Positions 2,787 through 9,879 of a stretch of DNA of 32,084 nucleotides are shown piece by piece. Below the pieces are notes generated by a model. The model was not told where the DNA came from. It worked only from the letters and a program-made list of their open reading frames with translations, and searched no databases. The stretch's first letter is position 1; each line of letters opens with the position of its first letter. A program made the translations under genes and the position numbers. The stretch lies in IMG/VR virus record IMGVR_UViG_2802429222_000004. One strand, written 5' to 3'. This stretch comes from a virus. Taxonomy: Duplodnaviria; Heunggongvirae; Uroviricota; Caudoviricetes.

Positions 2787-3085
2787 TGTCCTGTTCTCGT
2801 TCGGTTGTATTACTGAATAACGCCTTAAAAATAGCTGTTATGGAAAATGGTGATTTGTCTCTTATTCAACTTTGTCTTGATAAAGAAAAACGCGACATAA
2901 CTGAATCTGTTATCGCGATTTATCAGAATGAATTAAACCTCCTGTCTGATGTGGTCAATTTACTTGTTAAACGCGCTGTGTTCCACAAACAAATTTCCTC
3001 AGTGGATGAACTGACAAAATTAACGACAGAACTCGCCAGTTATTGCGCTGATGTATCCAGGAAACTTAACGATAAAAGGAGCTGA
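2783..3085 (+). CDS. Early hypothetical protein (P2 orf81 position)
   Basis: 100-aa ORF whose start overlaps the preceding stop (translational coupling). Confidence 0.6.
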
Positions 3086-3312: not shown

Positions 3313-3584
3313 GTATTCGTATCGAAATTGGCGAACGTTATGTCGTTACCAGTGACAGCTTTCAGTTTATTCTCCACGAGAAAAAGAGAGCGGAAAGCGG
3401 TAAAAACGCCGGTCAGGAATGGCTGGCGGTGGTTGGTTATTATCCGAAATTAAGCCAGCTCGTTTCCGGCCTGATGCATCACGATATTCTGACCGGAAGC
3501 GCAAAGTCTTTTGCTGATTTAAACGCGCAGGTTGAGCAACTCAGCAGGCGTTGTTCAGAGGCTTTTGGCTCATATGGACGTTAA
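3309..3584 (+). CDS. Early hypothetical protein (P2 orf83 position)
   Basis: 91-aa ORF coupled to the flanking genes. Confidence 0.6.
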   Translation: MSIRIEIGERYVVTSDSFQFILHEKKRAESGKNAGQEWLAVVGYYPKLSQLVSGLMHHDILTGSAKSFADLNAQVEQLSRRCSEAFGSYGR

Positions 3585-5844
3585 AGCCTCCGGGCGTTTT
3601 GTCCCTCCGTCAGCATTTGCCGCAGGCACCGGTAAGGCGTTTACCGGTGCTTATGCATGGAACGCGCCACGCGAGGCTGTCGGGCGCGAAAGACCCCTTA
3701 CACGTGACGAGATGCGTCAGGTGCAAGGTGTTTTATCCACGATTAACCGCCTGCCTTACTTTTTGCGCTCGCTGTTTACTTCACGCTATGACTACATCCG
3801 GCGCAATAAAAGCCCGGTGCACGGGTTTTATTTCCTCACATCCACTTTTCAGCGTCGTTTATGGCCGCGCATTGAGCGTGTGAATCAGCGCCATGAAATG
3901 AACACCGACGCGTCGTTGCTGTTTCTGGCAGAGCGCGACCAGTATGCGCGCCTGCCGGGGATGAATGACAAGGAGCTGAAAAAGTTTGCTGCCCGTATCT
4001 CATCGCAGCTTTTCATGATGTATGAGGAACTCTGCGATGCCTGGGTTGATGCACATGGCGAAAAAGAATCACTGTTTACGGATGAGGCTCAGGATCACCT
4101 GTATGGTCATGTTGCTGGCGCTGCACGAGCTTTCAATATTTCCCCTCTCTACTGGAAAAAATACCGTAAAGGACAGATGACCACGAGGCAGGCATATTCT
4201 GCCATTGCCCGTCTGTTTAACGATGAGTGGTGGACTCATCAGCTTAAAGGCCAGCGTATGCGCTGGCATGAGGCGTTACTGATTGCTGTCGGGGAGGTCA
4301 ATAAAGACCGTTCTCCTTATGCCAGTAAACATGCCATTCGTGATGTGCGTGCGCGCCGCCAGGCAAATCTGGAGTTTCTTAAATCATGTGACCTTGAAAA
4401 CAGGGAAACCGGCGAGCGCATCGACCTTATCAGTAAGGTGATGGGCAGTATTTCTAATCCTGAAATTCGCCGGATGGAGCTGATGAACACCATTGCCGGT
4501 ATTGAGCGTTACGCCGTCGCAGAGGGTGATGTGGGGATGTTTATCACGCTGACCACGCCGTCAAAGTATCACCCGACACGTCAGGTCGGAAAAGGAGAAA
4601 GTAAAACCGTCCAGCTTAATCACGGCTGGAACGATGAGGCATTTAATCCGAAGGATGCGCAGCGTTATCTCTGCCGTATCTGGAGCCTGATGCGCACGGC
4701 ATTCAAGGATAATGATTTACAGGTCTACGGTTTGCGTGTCGTCGAGCCACACCACGACGGAACGCCGCACTGGCATATGATGCTTTTTTGTAATCCACGC
4801 CAGCGTAACCAGATTATCGAAATCATGCGTCGCTATGCGCTCAAAGAGGATGGTAACGAAAGAGGAGCCGCGCGAAACCGTTTTCAGGCAAAACACCTTA
4901 ACCGGGGCGGTGCTGCGGGATATATCGCAAAATACATCTCAAAAAATATCGACGGCTATGCACTGGATGGTCAGCTCGATAACGATACCGGCAGGCCGCT
5001 GAAAGACACTGCAGCGGCTGTTACCGCATGGGCGTCAACGTGGCGTATCCCGCAATTTAAAACGGTTGGCCTGCCGACAATGGGCGCTTACCGTGAACTA
5101 CGCAAATTGCCTCGCGGCGTCAGCATTGCTGATGAGTTTGACGAACGCGTCGAGGCTGCACGCGCCGCCGCAGACAGTGGTGATTTTGCGTTGTATATCA
5201 GCGCGCAGGGTGGGGCAAATGTTCCGCGCGATTGTCAGACTGTCAGGGTTGCCCGTAGTCCGTCGGATGAAGTTAACGAGTACGAGGAAGAAGTCGAGAG
5301 AGTGGTCGGCATTTACGCGCCGCATCTCGGCGCGCGTCATATTCATATCACCAGAACGACGGACTGGCGCATTGTTCCGAAAGTGCCGGTCGTTGAGCCT
5401 TTGACTTTAAAAAGCGGCATCGCCGCGCCTCGGAGTCCTGTCAATAACTGTGGAAAGCTTGCCGACGGTGGCGATCCAGTTATGACACCTACGCCGTCTG
5501 AGCATGCCGCAGCGGTGCTAAATCTTGTCGATGATGGGGTTATTGCATGGGATGACCCCGAAGTTGTGACGGTGCTCAGGAGTGCATTAAAACACGGCGC
5601 GCCGCAGCAAAATCGACAGCAAAGAAGCGATGAGCCATTAAAATCGAATCAGATAGCACCATCAGGGCGAATGACAAAAGCCGAGAGGGCTCAGATTCCG
5701 CGCATCCGCTTCGAACTGGCGCAGCAGGGTATCACGCCGCAGCGGTGGGAACTTCAGGCGCTGGCTCGTGGCGGAATAGTGGTTTATGGCGAAAAAAGAT
5801 TTGTATACCCGATAGCGGACGAGTGGGTGAAGCATGAAGGGTGA
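3574..5844 (+). CDS. A: Rolling-circle replication initiator endonuclease A
   Basis: Large ORF (track 3532..5844) at the position of P2 A. The ATG at 3574 (MDVKASGRF...) gives about 756 aa, close to P2 A (761 aa). The exact start is uncertain. Confidence 0.85.
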   Translation: MDVKASGRFVPPSAFAAGTGKAFTGAYAWNAPREAVGRERPLTRDEMRQVQGVLSTINRLPYFLRSLFTSRYDYIRRNKSPVHGFYFLTSTFQRRLWPRIERVNQRHEMNTDASLLFLAERDQYARLPGMNDKELKKFAARISSQLFMMYEELCDAWVDAHGEKESLFTDEAQDHLYGHVAGAARAFNISPLYWKKYRKGQMTTRQAYSAIARLFNDEWWTHQLKGQRMRWHEALLIAVGEVNKDRSPYASKHAIRDVRARRQANLEFLKSCDLENRETGERIDLISKVMGSISNPEIRRMELMNTIAGIERYAVAEGDVGMFITLTTPSKYHPTRQVGKGESKTVQLNHGWNDEAFNPKDAQRYLCRIWSLMRTAFKDNDLQVYGLRVVEPHHDGTPHWHMMLFCNPRQRNQIIEIMRRYALKEDGNERGAARNRFQAKHLNRGGAAGYIAKYISKNIDGYALDGQLDNDTGRPLKDTAAAVTAWASTWRIPQFKTVGLPTMGAYRELRKLPRGVSIADEFDERVEAARAAADSGDFALYISAQGGANVPRDCQTVRVARSPSDEVNEYEEEVERVVGIYAPHLGARHIHITRTTDWRIVPKVPVVEPLTLKSGIAAPRSPVNNCGKLADGGDPVMTPTPSEHAAAVLNLVDDGVIAWDDPEVVTVLRSALKHGAPQQNRQQRSDEPLKSNQIAPSGRMTKAERAQIPRIRFELAQQGITPQRWELQALARGGIVVYGEKRFVYPIADEWVKHEG

Positions 5845-6170
5845 TTTATATCCATCTAAATCATGATGTTATGATGGCCGTGTGAGTTCTTTTCTGATTG
5901 GGGCTGCGTTCGACGGCTTGAAATGTTGTAAATGCTCATAATCTGGTTTAAAGTGTTTTTATGCCAACGACTAGGAGCATCTCCAGTCATAAATGTTGGC
6001 CTCTACAGGCCTTTATATAGTGTTGCTCTTGTACTGCCTTCTCTTTCGAGAGAAGGTATGTACAAGAAGTAAAGCCTGCGAAGGGAGGGTGTCTGGGGTG
6101 AGGAAAGACTGAGAGTTAAAGCATTCATCTTAGAATCCATTCAACTCAAAAAACAAAAGCTCAGCCAACG
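5845..6170 (+). ncRNA. Putative retron msr-msd non-coding RNA region (boundaries not resolved)
   Basis: About 330 bp of non-coding DNA directly upstream of a retron-sized RT. It contains a 39-nt hairpin at 6028-6066 (stems CTTGTAC/GTACAAG and CCTTCTCT/AGAGAAGG, TTCG loop), a GGCC-TCTACA-GGCC hairpin at 5998-6011, and a -35-like TTGAAA at 5918-5923. Confidence 0.4.
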
Positions 6171-7160
6171 ATGAAACCCCTTAGTCTCGAAAAAGCCTTC
6201 AATATTGCATTCTTCGAAAAAGATTCCTTTCAAAACTTTCTTTCGTTTGAACCATTTCAACAAACTAAATTTATAACCTTTGATGAAAGGTTAATTGCTG
6301 AGCCCACTTCTAAACTAAAAGAGTATCACAAATTCATAAATGAATTTGTTCTTTCATACTTGAAAGTAAATAAGGATGTTGTGTTTTCGTATAGAAAAGG
6401 AAGCAGCACTTATGATGCAGTAAAACTTCACGCCTGTAGTAAGATATTCTTCAATACTGATATTAAAAGCTTTTTCCCATCGATAACTCGTGAATATGCA
6501 CGATCAGTTTTAGTTGATAACTTATCGAACGTTCCCATTTCCGATTTAAATATACACTTGGATAAAATTTTAGATTATATTATTATCGATAATTCGTTGC
6601 CTGTAGGGTTCCCGACATCACCAGCTTTCAGCAATGCATGTTTATATGACTTTGATGTTGAGATGCAGCAATATTGTATTAACCATGAATATATATTCAC
6701 ACGCTATTCAGATGATATTATTATTTCCTCTGAAAATGATGAGGGCTTTGAGAATATTCATTCTGTAGTAAGTGACCTGCTGGGTGAGTTTGGGAAGGGA
6801 CATTTCAAACTAAACTCAGCAAAAACTAAATTGATTAAAAAAGGCAGTAAGATTAAGCTGCTGGGGATGGTTATTTTACCGTCTCAGATAGTCTCTGTTG
6901 ATATTAAAATAAAAAGAAAGCTTGAGCATTTGATTCATTTTTATGTAACGGATAAAGATAAATTTATAGATTCTATAATAAAAGATCCTAAGGTTAAAAC
7001 TAGCGGATTGAATGATAGTGAGATCTTGGAAAAGGGCGTTAATACAGTTTCTGGTCTTTTGAATCATATAAACACAATTGATAAGAGTTATCTCGATAAG
7101 CTAAAGAGAAAATACGGAAATACGATTGTCGATATGCTTTTTTACAAGAATGTAAATTAA
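6171..7160 (+). CDS. Reverse transcriptase, retron-type size (329 aa)
   Basis: RT motifs read directly: TDIKSFFPSI (domain 1/2), LPVGFPTSPAFSNACL (domain 4), and catalytic YSDD within IFTRYSDDIIIS (nt 6705-6716). Low GC compared with the flanking phage genes. Confidence 0.8.
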   Translation: MKPLSLEKAFNIAFFEKDSFQNFLSFEPFQQTKFITFDERLIAEPTSKLKEYHKFINEFVLSYLKVNKDVVFSYRKGSSTYDAVKLHACSKIFFNTDIKSFFPSITREYARSVLVDNLSNVPISDLNIHLDKILDYIIIDNSLPVGFPTSPAFSNACLYDFDVEMQQYCINHEYIFTRYSDDIIISSENDEGFENIHSVVSDLLGEFGKGHFKLNSAKTKLIKKGSKIKLLGMVILPSQIVSVDIKIKRKLEHLIHFYVTDKDKFIDSIIKDPKVKTSGLNDSEILEKGVNTVSGLLNHINTIDKSYLDKLKRKYGNTIVDMLFYKNVN

Positions 7161-7161
7161 A

Positions 7162-8514
7162 ATGAAAATAAACATTGAGATCTCGAAAATCCAGCATGTT
7201 GAACATATGTCATTTGCTATTGATCTTTCTGAAAATAAACTGACTTGCATTGTAGGAAAGAACGGTGCTGGAAAGACAACGCTAATCAAAGCAATTAAAA
7301 ATTTACAATCAGCAGATACATTCATAAAGACATCTTCTAGATATATATTCAATCCTGACAGTAGTATAGTATATAATATTAATGATCAAGATATAGTATA
7401 TGTCTATGATGAGAATTTGAAGGTAATAGATACTAAGCAAATAATTCCAGCAGATATAAAATCCAATCTTTATGTCGAGTTGCCCATTCCTCATGGAATG
7501 AGGTTCAATAACTTCCCAACACTTAGTAAAATTGATACTGAACTTAGAAAAAGTATTGCGTTTGAAAGCTATAGCGTTCCCGAGGATTTGATAAATATAC
7601 TCAATGAGGTATATCAGTCTTCTTCTTACAATAATCTTAAAGCATTTTCTGTAAAAAATGAAATTTTCTATTTCAGATTGAATGAGAACGGAACATACAT
7701 AAGGGAGGATTACTTTAGCTCGGGTGAGTATTTTATTTTGAATTTATTTAGAATGATTGAGCTCAAAAGAAAATTCATTGTCATAGATGAGATAGATATA
7801 TCACTAGACTCTTCGGCGCAAGTCCATCTTATAGCAGTGCTAAGGAAATATTGTCAGAGACACTCGGTGAATATTGTATTCACAACACATTCACTTGCTT
7901 TAATGCAAACGCTGAATGATGATGAATTGTACTATATGTGCGAAGGTGATGCTGGAACTACAATTACAAATCGATCATATAATTATATAAAAAGTACGCT
8001 TTTTGGATTTAAAGGATGGGATAAGTACATTCTTACTGAAGATGAAGTTCTGCAAAATTTCTTAGAATATATAATTAATGCTCCTGGGAGTGATTACTTC
8101 TACGAATATAAAATAATATATGTTGGTGGAGGAACTAATGTCATTGATTTAATGCGTCGTAATGAGAGAGAGAGCTTTCTCACGACTCAACAGAATGTGA
8201 TCTCAGTGTTAGACGGAGATCAATTAGGTCAAAGGCATGCTCGAGGTGAAAATATTTTATGCATACCTTTCCAAAGCGTTGAGAAGGATTTCTATCAAGC
8301 ATACGGCCAAGATGAATCGATCCCGAGAGTTACAACTAGAGGTAACGATAAACTTGATAAGCAAGTTTATCGAGGGGTAGTGAAAACCTATGACAACGGT
8401 TGGGATGAAACTAGGATTTTTGAATACCTTGAGAGGTTAAAGCCTGATGAATGTGAGGCTTTCAGGCAAAAAATTAGAGCATTTCTCCAAAGAAATATTT
8501 CGGCAGAGGGTTGA
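7162..8514 (+). CDS. OLD-family ABC ATPase with C-terminal TOPRIM-like domain (450 aa)
   Basis: Walker A GKNGAGKTT (nt 7255-7281), signature-like FSSGEY, Walker B FIVIDEID, H-loop TTHSLA. The C-terminal half has TOPRIM-like motifs YILTEDE, VGGGTN and VLDGDQ. The start is 2 nt after the RT stop, so the two are one operon. Confidence 0.75.
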   Translation: MKINIEISKIQHVEHMSFAIDLSENKLTCIVGKNGAGKTTLIKAIKNLQSADTFIKTSSRYIFNPDSSIVYNINDQDIVYVYDENLKVIDTKQIIPADIKSNLYVELPIPHGMRFNNFPTLSKIDTELRKSIAFESYSVPEDLINILNEVYQSSSYNNLKAFSVKNEIFYFRLNENGTYIREDYFSSGEYFILNLFRMIELKRKFIVIDEIDISLDSSAQVHLIAVLRKYCQRHSVNIVFTTHSLALMQTLNDDELYYMCEGDAGTTITNRSYNYIKSTLFGFKGWDKYILTEDEVLQNFLEYIINAPGSDYFYEYKIIYVGGGTNVIDLMRRNERESFLTTQQNVISVLDGDQLGQRHARGENILCIPFQSVEKDFYQAYGQDESIPRVTTRGNDKLDKQVYRGVVKTYDNGWDETRIFEYLERLKPDECEAFRQKIRAFLQRNISAEG

Positions 8515-8656
8515 ATATAAGCTTCGGGATCTCATGCCTCTCTATCTGCATGAAATTGCATTTGATAATTCCTATTTTTCTCGTGAACTGTGTCACGTTA
8601 GGCGCAGCTCAGGGCTCATAATGCATCTGCATTAAAACCGCCCCACGAAGCGGGCG

Positions 8657-8675
8657 GGCGAGGCGGGGAAAGCAC
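8657..8675. other. cos site (19-nt cohesive end GGCGAGGCGGGGAAAGCAC)
   Basis: Matches the P2 cohesive-end sequence as I recall it, and lies about 170 bp from the end of Q, as in P2. Confidence 0.6.
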
Positions 8676-8814
8676 TGCGCGCTGGCGGTGGTGCGGATTT
8701 TATTTTTTCAGCGTCTGAGCGCGTCGTGACGGCGTTTAGATTGTGCGCCGGGGCATTGGTGTGTCTGCGGGGTGTTTTGTGCGGTGGTGAGCGTGTGAGG
8801 TCGTGATGACGGGA

Positions 8815-8839
8815 TATAAAAAAGCCGCCCGCAGGCGGC
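8815..8839 (-). terminator. Rho-independent terminator after Q
   Basis: On the minus strand: GCCGCC-TGCG-GGCGGC hairpin followed by TTTTTT, immediately downstream of the Q stop. Confidence 0.7.
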
Positions 8840-8844
8840 GATGT

Positions 8845-9879
8845 TCAGCCGTTGTCAGTGTCCAGTGAGTAGTTTTTAAAGCGGATGACCTCCTGACCGA
8901 GCCAGCCGTTTATCTCGCGGATCCTGTCCTGTAACGGGATAAGCTCATTGCGGACAAAGACCTTTGCCACTTTCTCAATATCGCCCAGTGACCCGACGTT
9001 CTCCGGCTTGCCCCCCATCAACTGAAAGGGGATGCGGTGCGCGTCCAGCAGGTCAGCGGCGCTGACTTTTTTGATATTAAAAAAATCGTCCTTCGTTGCC
9101 ACTTCACTGAGCGGGATAATTTTAATGCCGTCGGCTTTTCCCTGTGGGGCGTAGAGAAACAGGTTTTTAAAGTTGTTGCGGCCTTTCGACTTAACCATGT
9201 TTTCGCGAAGCATTTCGATATCATTGCGATCCTGCACGGCATCGGTGACGTACATGATGTATCCGGCATGTGCGCCATTTTCGTAATACTTGCGGCGGAA
9301 CAGCGTGGCCGACTCATTCAGCCAGGCAGAGTTAAGGGCGCTGAGATATTCCGGCAGGCCGTACAGCTCCTGATTAATATCCGGCTCCAGCAGGTGAAAC
9401 ACGGAGCCGGTCGCGAAGGCTGTCGGCTCGTTGAAGGACGGCACCCACCAGTAAACATCCTCCTCCACGCCACGGCGGGTATATTTTGCCGGTGAGGTTT
9501 CCAGTCTGATGACCTTACCGGTGGTGCTGTAACGCTTTTCCAGAAACGCATTGCCGAACACCAGAAAATCCAGCACAAAGCGGCTGAAATCCTGCTGGGA
9601 AAGCCACGGGTGCGGGATAAACGTTGAAGCCAGAATATTGCGTTTAACGTAAATCGGCGAGCTGTGATGCACGGCAGCACGCAGGCTTTTTGCCAGACCG
9701 GTAAAGCTGACCGGCGGTTCATACCATCTGCCGTTACTGATGCACTCGACGTAATCCAGAATGTCACGGCGGTCGAGTACCGGCACCGGCTCACCAAAGG
9801 TGAATGCCTCCATTTTCGGGGCGCTGGCGGTCATTTTTTTTGCCGCAGGTTGCGGTGTTTTCCCTTTTTTCTTGCTCAT
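8845..9879 (-). CDS. Q: Portal protein Q (344 aa)
   Basis: 344 aa, the same length as P2 Q. Leftward, adjacent to cos, overlapping the terminase gene by 1 nt. Confidence 0.9.
   Translation of the reverse strand: MSKKKGKTPQPAAKKMTASAPKMEAFTFGEPVPVLDRRDILDYVECISNGRWYEPPVSFTGLAKSLRAAVHHSSPIYVKRNILASTFIPHPWLSQQDFSRFVLDFLVFGNAFLEKRYSTTGKVIRLETSPAKYTRRGVEEDVYWWVPSFNEPTAFATGSVFHLLEPDINQELYGLPEYLSALNSAWLNESATLFRRKYYENGAHAGYIMYVTDAVQDRNDIEMLRENMVKSKGRNNFKNLFLYAPQGKADGIKIIPLSEVATKDDFFNIKKVSAADLLDAHRIPFQLMGGKPENVGSLGDIEKVAKVFVRNELIPLQDRIREINGWLGQEVIRFKNYSLDTDNG

Follow-up and report, generated by a model that had tools for sequence, protein, structure and literature searches.

A probable type I-B1 retron noncoding RNA gene in the defence hotspot of a P2-like Escherichia coli prophage

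Subtype I-B1 retrons were defined computationally in 2020, together with a predicted RNA family, as a clade-1 reverse transcriptase (RT) with a downstream ABC-ATPase plus Toprim protein carrying EDxxL as motif IV and DxD as motif V (Mestre et al. 2020, PMC7736814), an effector elsewhere termed 'class 3B OLD' (PMC10568477). The table of the 2020 study holds no described retron under I-B1 (PMC7736814), and the subtype has no member validated by multicopy single-stranded DNA (msDNA), defence phenotype or structure. Its best solved relatives belong to type I-A, and the nearest functional analogue for effector control is Retron-Eco8 (I-B2), for which solved complexes are available and whose abortive infection is triggered by the single-stranded DNA-binding protein of the phage (PMC13402713). 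P2-like phages carry a known defence hotspot, from gene A to portal gene Q, that receives variable anti-phage cargo including retrons (Rousset et al. 2022, PMC9122126). Here we analysed a 32,084-nucleotide viral sequence (IMG/VR record IMGVR_UViG_2802429222_000004; hereafter the window), a P2-like E. coli prophage with an RT gene and an ATPase-Toprim gene at the same position and following the same logic; the particular system found here, and its RNA, are not described in the hotspot work. The 326-bp gap before the RT gene (5845-6170) contains a conserved structured RNA with a defined strand, its own promoter and an obligatory linkage to the RT. We put the probability at about 80% that positions 5961-6078 are the noncoding RNA (ncRNA) gene of a type I-B1 retron in this hotspot, working as proposed below. 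I-B1 being already defined, the window is a further member of it.

A conserved structured RNA beside a type I-B retron RT

The 329-amino acid RT matched the PADLOC model RT_I-B PDLC02937 over its full length (365 bits, E 6.5e-110), compared with 115 bits for a second I-B model of the I-B2 type, and on these sequence matches is a type I-B retron RT. It carries the catalytic motif YSDD which, like other polymerase residues, is invariant across the family. One base further, a 450-amino acid protein matched ATPase-Toprim_I-B PDLC02914 (595 bits, E 2e-179) and displays Walker A (GKNGAGKTT), Walker B (FIVIDEID) and the Toprim motifs TEDEVL (EDxxL) and DGD (DxD). PDLC02937 and PDLC02914 are the best matches of the two proteins, and the EDxxL/DxD effector follows the RT, an order kept in 75 of 80 related loci with a spacing of mostly ~10-50 nt. 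RT clade and hidden Markov model, downstream EDxxL/DxD effector and structured RNA by the RT are all held in common with I-B1 retrons (PMC7736814, PMC10568477), and nothing excludes membership. Retron-Eco8 is likewise tripartite, with an OLD-family ATPase-Toprim nuclease as effector, but its RT falls in clade 3 and its OLD gene lies upstream of the RT (PMC7736814, PMC10568477), whereas the window effector lies downstream. The match between the Eco8 and window RTs reaches only E 4e-8, and none of the Eco8 effector chains matches the window effector at E <= 0.001. Identity as I-B2/Retron-Eco8 was rejected on the weak RT match, the missing effector match, the opposite gene order and the model scores of 115 versus 365 bits.

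Homologues of the RT, from 98% down to ~37% identity, were used to collect 80 loci (L numbers below), one genome per species. In nearly all of them, a profile of the window sequence from 5961 onward detected a conserved element that lies upstream of the RT. Aligned and folded with RNAalifold, 27 diverse members yielded a consensus with four helices (P1 to P4) and 30 pairs, in which 92.7% of cells were paired, as against 79.3% in shuffled alignments and ~40% when partners were slid. Double changes occurred in 20 of the 30 pairs, a number reached by none of 500 shuffles (14.0 +/- 1.4). A covariance model, R1, was then searched with cmsearch on both strands of the window and the 80 loci (81 sources, 552 kb). 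Of these sources, which span Enterobacterales to Burkholderiales, 79 had exactly one match, in every case immediately upstream of the RT. The match at 5961-6084 (96.6 bits, E 4.9e-23) is the only one in the window. In the 79-sequence alignment, which is fitted to R1 and hence biased towards the structure, 94.7% of cells pair versus 74.6% after shuffling, the covariation score is 0.583 versus 0.202, and 25 of 30 pairs show compensatory double changes. All eight further Enterobacterales loci examined (L082-L089) gave one R1 match each. A scan of IMG/VR viral contigs with a 20-mer of the P2 hairpin retrieved 17 contigs, 16 of them with an adjacent RT; the seventeenth, L102, was dismissed as an orphan copy, being a chance match of the 20-nt hairpin alone within a 588-amino acid open reading frame (ORF).

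The locus joins a retron-clade RT to a neighbouring structured ncRNA, the combination that defines retrons in general (PMC12475279, PMC7736814). An initial annotation, made by a model from the letters of the window, had proposed that the whole gap (5845-6170) holds the cognate retron ncRNA of the RT, with a long hairpin as its msd-like part. That core reading is borne out by the RT type and by the covariance model, a check it had itself suggested and in which a model built on the element locates one copy beside the RT in nearly every source. The proposed extent is not, for the element occupies 5961-6078 only. The alternative it had named, an ncRNA-independent RT resembling those of abortive infection (Abi) or defence-associated reverse transcriptase (DRT) systems, is excluded.

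The helices form two domains (Table 1). Each of the five modelled pairs of P1 shows compensatory changes, with 99.7% of its cells paired. Pairing in P2 is 100%, with U:A to C:G exchanges, while G5969:C5988, A5970:U5987 and G5974:C5984 are constant across 78 distinct sequences. The functional strand is identified as + by G-U wobbles in both helices. Unpaired residues conserved at 90% or more are A5961 and, each at 92% or more, A5973, A5979, C6001, C6003, U6004, A6005 and A6015, the last being A in 78 of 79 sequences. P3 and P4 together show compensatory changes in 16 of 17 pairs with 88-91% of cells paired, as is characteristic of an msd stem; all 13 modelled P4 pairs are among those with compensatory changes, and P4 varies freely in sequence and also in length. 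An invariant 5' domain next to a 3' hairpin of variable sequence corresponds to the usual split of such RNAs into one part recognized by the RT and another serving as template. The 5' domain, nearly invariant, is probably the RT handle, and the 3' hairpin, conserved in structure rather than sequence, is probably the msd template.

Thermodynamic folding agrees. The long hairpin seen initially was confirmed, each of its two stacked arms being 100% complementary around a UUCG loop, and the four pairs of P3 lengthen it. RNA folding of 5900-6170, another check proposed at the outset, gave -86.5 kcal/mol (z = -3.62; 0 of 200 shuffles as good). The element itself (5961-6084) folded as RNA at -48.8 kcal/mol (z = -6.05), and the reverse complement of 6018-6078 folded as DNA at -13.5 kcal/mol (z = -5.56).

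The 45 nt upstream of the element, aligned without gaps on the RNA start in 78 loci, contain a promoter. TAnnnT begins at -12 in 53 loci and at -13 in 13 more, and TTG begins at -36 to -34 in 54; the most frequent bases are T at -12 (71%), A at -11 (78%), T at -7 (73%) and A at +1 (79%). In the window, this logo falls on TTGTAA and TAAAGT and places the inferred transcription start at A5961. TTGTAA agrees with the consensus at only 4 of 6 positions and so was unlisted by a generic promoter scan. The -35-like TTGAAA that had been pointed out at 5918-5923 is present as letters, but it lies only 13 nt from CATAAT and away from the family-conserved site; spacing and the family-wide logo rule it out as a -35.

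In 19 of the 79 sources with a match, all Burkholderiales-type (L021, L024, L030, L035, L040, L047, L048, L053, L057, L059, L061, L062, L064, L066, L067, L068, L070, L071 and L072), the element stands on the strand opposite the RT and is transcribed away from it, beginning ~50-85 nt from the RT start codon (locus positions ~2790-2940, minus strand). RNA and RT must there be expressed from divergent promoters. These opposite-strand copies indicate that the RNA is a gene of its own and not an mRNA leader.

Table 1. Coordinates of features in the window
Feature	Position	Strand	Basis or remark
-35 hexamer TTGTAA, ncRNA sigma-70 promoter	5926..5931	+	family logo; 17-nt spacer to -10
-10 hexamer TAAAGT	5949..5954	+	family logo
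Probable type I-B1 retron ncRNA, conserved element, ~118 nt	5961..6078	+	cmsearch R1; inferred start A5961
5' domain (P1 + P2), proposed RT-binding handle, msr-like	5963..6000	+	covariation
P1	5963-5968 with 5995-6000	+	modelled part 5963-5967/5996-6000; 5968:5995 in window
P2 hairpin, enclosed by P1	5969-5972 + 5974-5977 with 5981-5988	+	bulged A5973, loop 5978-5980
Single-stranded motif CUCUA	6001..6005	+	C6001, C6003, U6004, A6005 each at least 92% conserved (79-sequence alignment)
a1-like segment CAGGCCUUUA	6006..6015	+	ends in near-invariant unpaired A6015; pairable with 6070-6078
3' domain (P3 + P4), proposed msd, template for complementary DNA (cDNA)	6023..6072	+	covariation, folds
P3 closing helix	6023-6026 with 6069-6072	+	UUGC/GUAA
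P4 long hairpin	6027-6034/6060-6067 + 6037-6044/6049-6056	+	loop 6045-6048
a2-like segment UAAAGCCUG	6070..6078	+	overlaps P3 3' strand; lineage-specific support only
Lineage-specific RT-gene leader	6085..6170	+	fold; conserved in closest relatives only
G-U-rich stem	6092-6102 with 6124-6134	+ only	minimum-energy fold of 5900-6170
Promoter-like site CTGAGA, 16 nt, TAGAAT	6109-6136	+	promoter scan; overlaps G-U-rich stem
Retron reverse transcriptase, type I-B1, 329 amino acids	6171..7160	+	PADLOC RT_I-B, Pfam RVT_1
ATPase-Toprim effector (OLD-like, 'class 3B'), 450 amino acids	7162..8514	+	PADLOC ATPase-Toprim_I-B
Portal gene	8845-9879	minus

Relation to characterized retrons and the experimental record

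Type I-A retrons Ec83 and Ec78 (Retron-Eco4 and Retron-Eco7) share RT clade 1 with the window, their RTs matching at E 1e-16 to 3e-22; II-A1 retrons belong to this clade as well. In Ec83, priming occurs from G8, stem-loop 1 is a handle that the thumb of the RT holds, and the RT is also contacted by a conserved single-stranded 'clamp'; handle, clamp and termination sequence together constitute the I-A mechanism (PMC12475279). Comparison of I-A and II-A1 ncRNAs with measured RT-DNAs gave the order a1 (CUCUUUA), priming G, stem-loop, second stem, CUCUAA-UUUAUUGA, msd stem and G-UAAAGAG (a2), with the RT-DNA ending at CUCUAA-UUUAUUGA. The I-A and I-B1 RNAs are alike in their long msd stem, whose sequence varies. 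They also share, as judged by eye, short motifs in the same order, namely G, 2 nt, UAGGAN..NUCCA-GUC, then CUCUA, UUUAU and A-G-UAA, which in the window read C-G5969-AC-UAGGAG...CUCCA-GUC, CUCUA, UUUAU and A-G-UAA; CUCUA also looks like the conserved I-A clamp region, a resemblance again judged by eye only. We treat this motif likeness as a lead rather than a result. Should it hold, synthesis would terminate near 6016-6022 and yield msDNA of ~50-60 nt, and the I-A mechanism is by analogy a plausible template for I-B1. The two types differ in their termini, I-A pairing 5' a1 with 3' a2 and priming from G8 whereas nt 3-8 of the I-B1 RNA pair internally (P1) with no conserved terminal duplex, and in their effectors, which are a PtuA ATPase plus a PtuB HNH protein in I-A and a fused ATPase-Toprim in I-B1.

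Several results weigh against our reading. The 5' end and the segment after CUCUA lack family-wide complementarity to their own 3' tail, and the 79-sequence alignment contains no unpaired G conserved at 90% or more. A search with nhmmer using the I-B1 RNA profile found nothing in nine I-A/II-A1 ncRNAs, and an Rfam scan of 5400-8900 at E <= 10 returned noise only (E of at least 1.9, far below gathering scores). The RT itself departs from the hallmarks of its class: aligned by HMMER to a solved retron RT, it shows AVKLH where that RT has NALAH and LLG where that RT has VTG, and the consensus of the family, YDAVxxH ... KLLGMVI, keeps only the H and G of NAxxH/VTG. Finally, the two I-B1 retrons tested in the retron census, Terminal 308 (Pseudomonas hussainii) and Terminal 314 (Burkholderia pseudomallei), were both scored as RT-DNA '0 by PAGE' (polyacrylamide gel electrophoresis; PMC10849725), and the Terminal 308 reads extend across the presumed RT handle, at odds with a canonical, uncopied msr.

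The two constructs deserve separate treatment. The census ncRNA of Terminal 314 begins at CGGCTCTGCATC, that is, after the conserved P1-P2-CUCUA domain; in L012, CGGCTCTGCATC comes after CCTCTCC. Judged from sequence, this construct was probably incomplete, with its negative RT-DNA result a likely consequence. The annotated ncRNA of Terminal 308 includes the whole element, and its natural locus (L090, Atopomonas/Pseudomonas hussainii) scores 104 bits with R1, so that a model built from the family of the window recognizes an ncRNA that the census had assigned to I-B1. It is also the only I-B1 ncRNA with published RT-DNA reads, which represent the complement of the RNA from four A's past GUAA back to nt 3, taking in the hairpin and the entire 5' domain (PMC10849725). 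Boundaries of RT-DNA in the census are coverage thresholds (PMC10849725) and there is no gel band, so we regard these reads as weak evidence that the hairpin is copied. Read-through to nt 3 also conflicts with G5969 as a branch point.

Proposed mechanism and competing explanations

By analogy with characterized retrons, we infer that the RNA is reverse transcribed and that its product takes part in effector control and defence. A weak, position-conserved sigma-70 promoter would start transcription at A5961. The 5' domain (P1, P2, bulged A5973 and single-stranded CUCUA) would serve as the handle by which the RT recognizes its own RNA, and the RT, through YSDD, would copy the P3 and P4 template into single-stranded DNA able to form a hairpin. 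A stop ahead of the conserved UUUAU/CUCUA region predicts a product of ~50-60 nt, and read-through as in the Terminal 308 read set one of ~115 nt. A complex of RT, RNA and DNA would then restrain the OLD-like nuclease, and its disturbance by a phage factor would lead to abortive infection, as in Retron-Eco8 (PMC13402713) and type I-A (PMC12475279). As to priming, the family has neither a conserved terminal a1/a2 duplex nor a conserved unpaired G.

Neither the a1/a2 inverted repeats nor the branching G could be made out in the initial annotation, and our family-wide tests likewise recovered no conserved unpaired G and no family-wide repeat: the RNAalifold consensus predicts no terminal a1/a2 duplex, and cognate duplexes were no better than those with the tails of unrelated loci (median rank 0.47-0.58). 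The search for repeats did yield a lineage-specific helix of 5-9 bp that flanks the msd in some Enterobacterales and Pseudomonas relatives (p ~0.002-0.04). On this helix could be built a fully canonical msr-msd, in which the a1-like and a2-like segments of Table 1 act as a1 and a2 and G6008/G6009 or G5969 is the branching residue of a 2'-5'-branched msDNA. The minimum-energy fold of the window pairs 6006-6010 with 6074-6078 and is extendable by pairing 6012-6015 with 6070-6073; compensatory variants occur as CAGGCCUU/AAGGCCUG in L003 and L089 and CAAGC/GCUUG in L085, and also in L086; and against shuffled tails the helix attains p ~0.002 in three relatives (L003, L089 and L017; combined p = 6e-6, from sequences that are not independent). 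G5969, 9 nt from the 5' end, is invariant in 78 of 78 sequences and occupies the position of the priming G8 of Ec83. This layout nonetheless strikes us as unlikely. The helix is absent in Photorhabdus, Yersinia-type relatives, L087, L088 and Terminal 308, reaches only p = 0.27 in the window and leaves no family-wide signal; the a1-like strand is followed by a nucleotide other than G, and G5969 is base-paired; nt 3-8 pair with nt 35-40 and not with the 3' end; and the msr-like domain lies 5' of a1 instead of between a1 and msd, making the layout permuted at best.

That the RNA is not a template at all, but a structural or antitoxin-like partner of the RT, the effector or both, with cDNA made only on infection or never, we consider improbable. 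The absence of gel-visible RT-DNA from both tested I-B1 retrons, the missing canonical priming features and the deviating RT hallmark motifs would all be expected of such a partner, but it would leave unexplained the invariance of YSDD and other polymerase residues, the msd-template signature of a long hairpin variable in sequence yet conserved in structure, and the RT-DNA reads of Terminal 308, and one of the two negative constructs lacks the 5' domain. Far less credible still is a cis-acting leader (an attenuator or 5' untranslated region element) of the RT-effector operon, or a terminator of gene A. In the window the element does share the strand of gene A and the RT, stands between them and has no terminator before the RT, and a GGCC hairpin followed by a U-rich tract looks terminator-like. 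However, 19 of the 79 sources with a match carry the element on the strand opposite the RT, with transcription leading away from it; the element possesses its own conserved promoter and also occurs outside P2 prophages with no gene A before it, and the GGCC hairpin is not conserved.

Within the favoured reading, a retron ncRNA that serves as RT template, the I-B1 RNA could be re-wired: its RT-binding domain would stand 5' of the template, priming would dispense with a classical a1/a2 duplex and branching G, and the RNA would act in trans as a gene on either strand. Priming might then start from the paired invariant G5969 or from an adenosine such as A6015, or it might yield an unbranched product running through most of the RNA. 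We consider this rather unlikely, although it would, if true, explain why the census detected no normal msDNA band. I-B1 departs from the textbook retron in lacking a conserved a1/a2 and a conserved unpaired G, in its altered RT motifs and in an RNA encoded on either strand, and these departures make non-canonical priming a live, if doubtful, possibility. If they reflect a different way of priming, the definition of retrons needs widening and design rules for retron editors are not transferable to this clade; if priming is canonical, the result is simply that a known defence system has been annotated correctly, at a hotspot that was also known. The missing 5' domain in one of two census constructs weakens that negative result. 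The window copy is native to an E. coli P2-like prophage and therefore directly testable in a standard host, with usable boundaries in the promoter (5926-5954), the start (5961) and a conserved element extending to ~6078.

The gap and its surroundings

Upstream of the gap, ORF 3532-5844 encodes the replication protein gpA (Pfam Phage_GPA, E 1.4e-122), and RT and effector genes lie between it and the portal gene. The gap has 100% identical copies in 7 complete E. coli genomes and is present in 10 of 5,426, in each case chromosomal and without annotation. E. coli strains A30 and LR-45 are among those with an identical copy of the region. The annotation of A30 gives it a replication endonuclease, a reverse transcriptase family protein, an AAA family ATPase and a portal as neighbours. 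The A30 portal gene beside the retron (L001, 7001-8035), which accompanies an identical gap copy, is annotated as a pseudogene with an internal stop, and this prophage copy may be defective. In 5 of the 8 extra Enterobacterales loci (L083, L084, L085, L088 and L089), Phage_GPA was the call for the gene upstream of the RT. BLAST of the element against deposited phage genomes gave no match, and a literature search on the two protein accessions found none.

As first noted, the gap is without a real ORF, being overlapped only by chance ORFs of at most 46 amino acids. The GGCC hairpin described at 5998-6011 is there in the letters, but it is not conserved (Photorhabdus has AGCC...GAGCC), and neither the minimum-energy fold of the window nor the RNAalifold consensus uses it. 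It was discarded as a conserved element or terminator, its 5' arm being the 3' strand of the covarying P1, with which it competes. A 7-nt inverted repeat, TGTTTTT 5954-5960 and AAAAACA 6149-6155, was rejected as a1/a2 since it begins upstream of the inferred RNA start and is not kept in L002 and L003.

At the 3' side, conservation among Enterobacterales ends after ~6078 while the model match runs to 6084. No intrinsic terminator follows the element in the window, and only 4 of the 79 sources with a match have one 3' of the RNA in either orientation. The features of 6085-6170 are kept only in L002, L003, L082 and L089 and are not part of the family-wide element; the G-U-rich stem or the promoter-like site between ncRNA and RT may represent an RT leader or an internal promoter. 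In L082, the stem has one-sided changes that preserve pairing. The 8-mer GCCAACGA, comprising the P1 5' strand with G5969 and A5970, occurs at 5963-5970 and again at 6164-6171, where it runs into the RT start codon (GCCAACG-ATG). This second copy could compete for the P1 3' strand GUUGGC. GCCAAC near the RT start is kept in L002, L082 and L089 and reads GTTAAC in L003, a set too closely related to judge.

Tails 3' of the element vary between lineages. In 8 of the 19 inverted loci (e.g., L040, L061 and L071), the tail after P3 is GUAGAG(G), a complement both of UCUAC in the 5' strand of P3 and, across 5-6 bp, of the invariant motif CCUCUA. This double complementarity would allow two mutually exclusive pairings; the enrichment is mild. 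About 25 nt 3' of the P3 GUAA, the motif CUAGCAGC recurs in L010, L009, L016 and L079 (Pseudomonas and Saccharospirillum). The spacer between ncRNA and RT ranges from ~30 to ~450 nt across the family and can contain tandem repeats: ~15 copies of (CCAGCT)n at ~2720-2830 of L016 (Pseudomonas azerbaijanoccidentalis) and (GCAAATAG)x4 at ~1400-1440 of L084 (Kosakonia cowanii).

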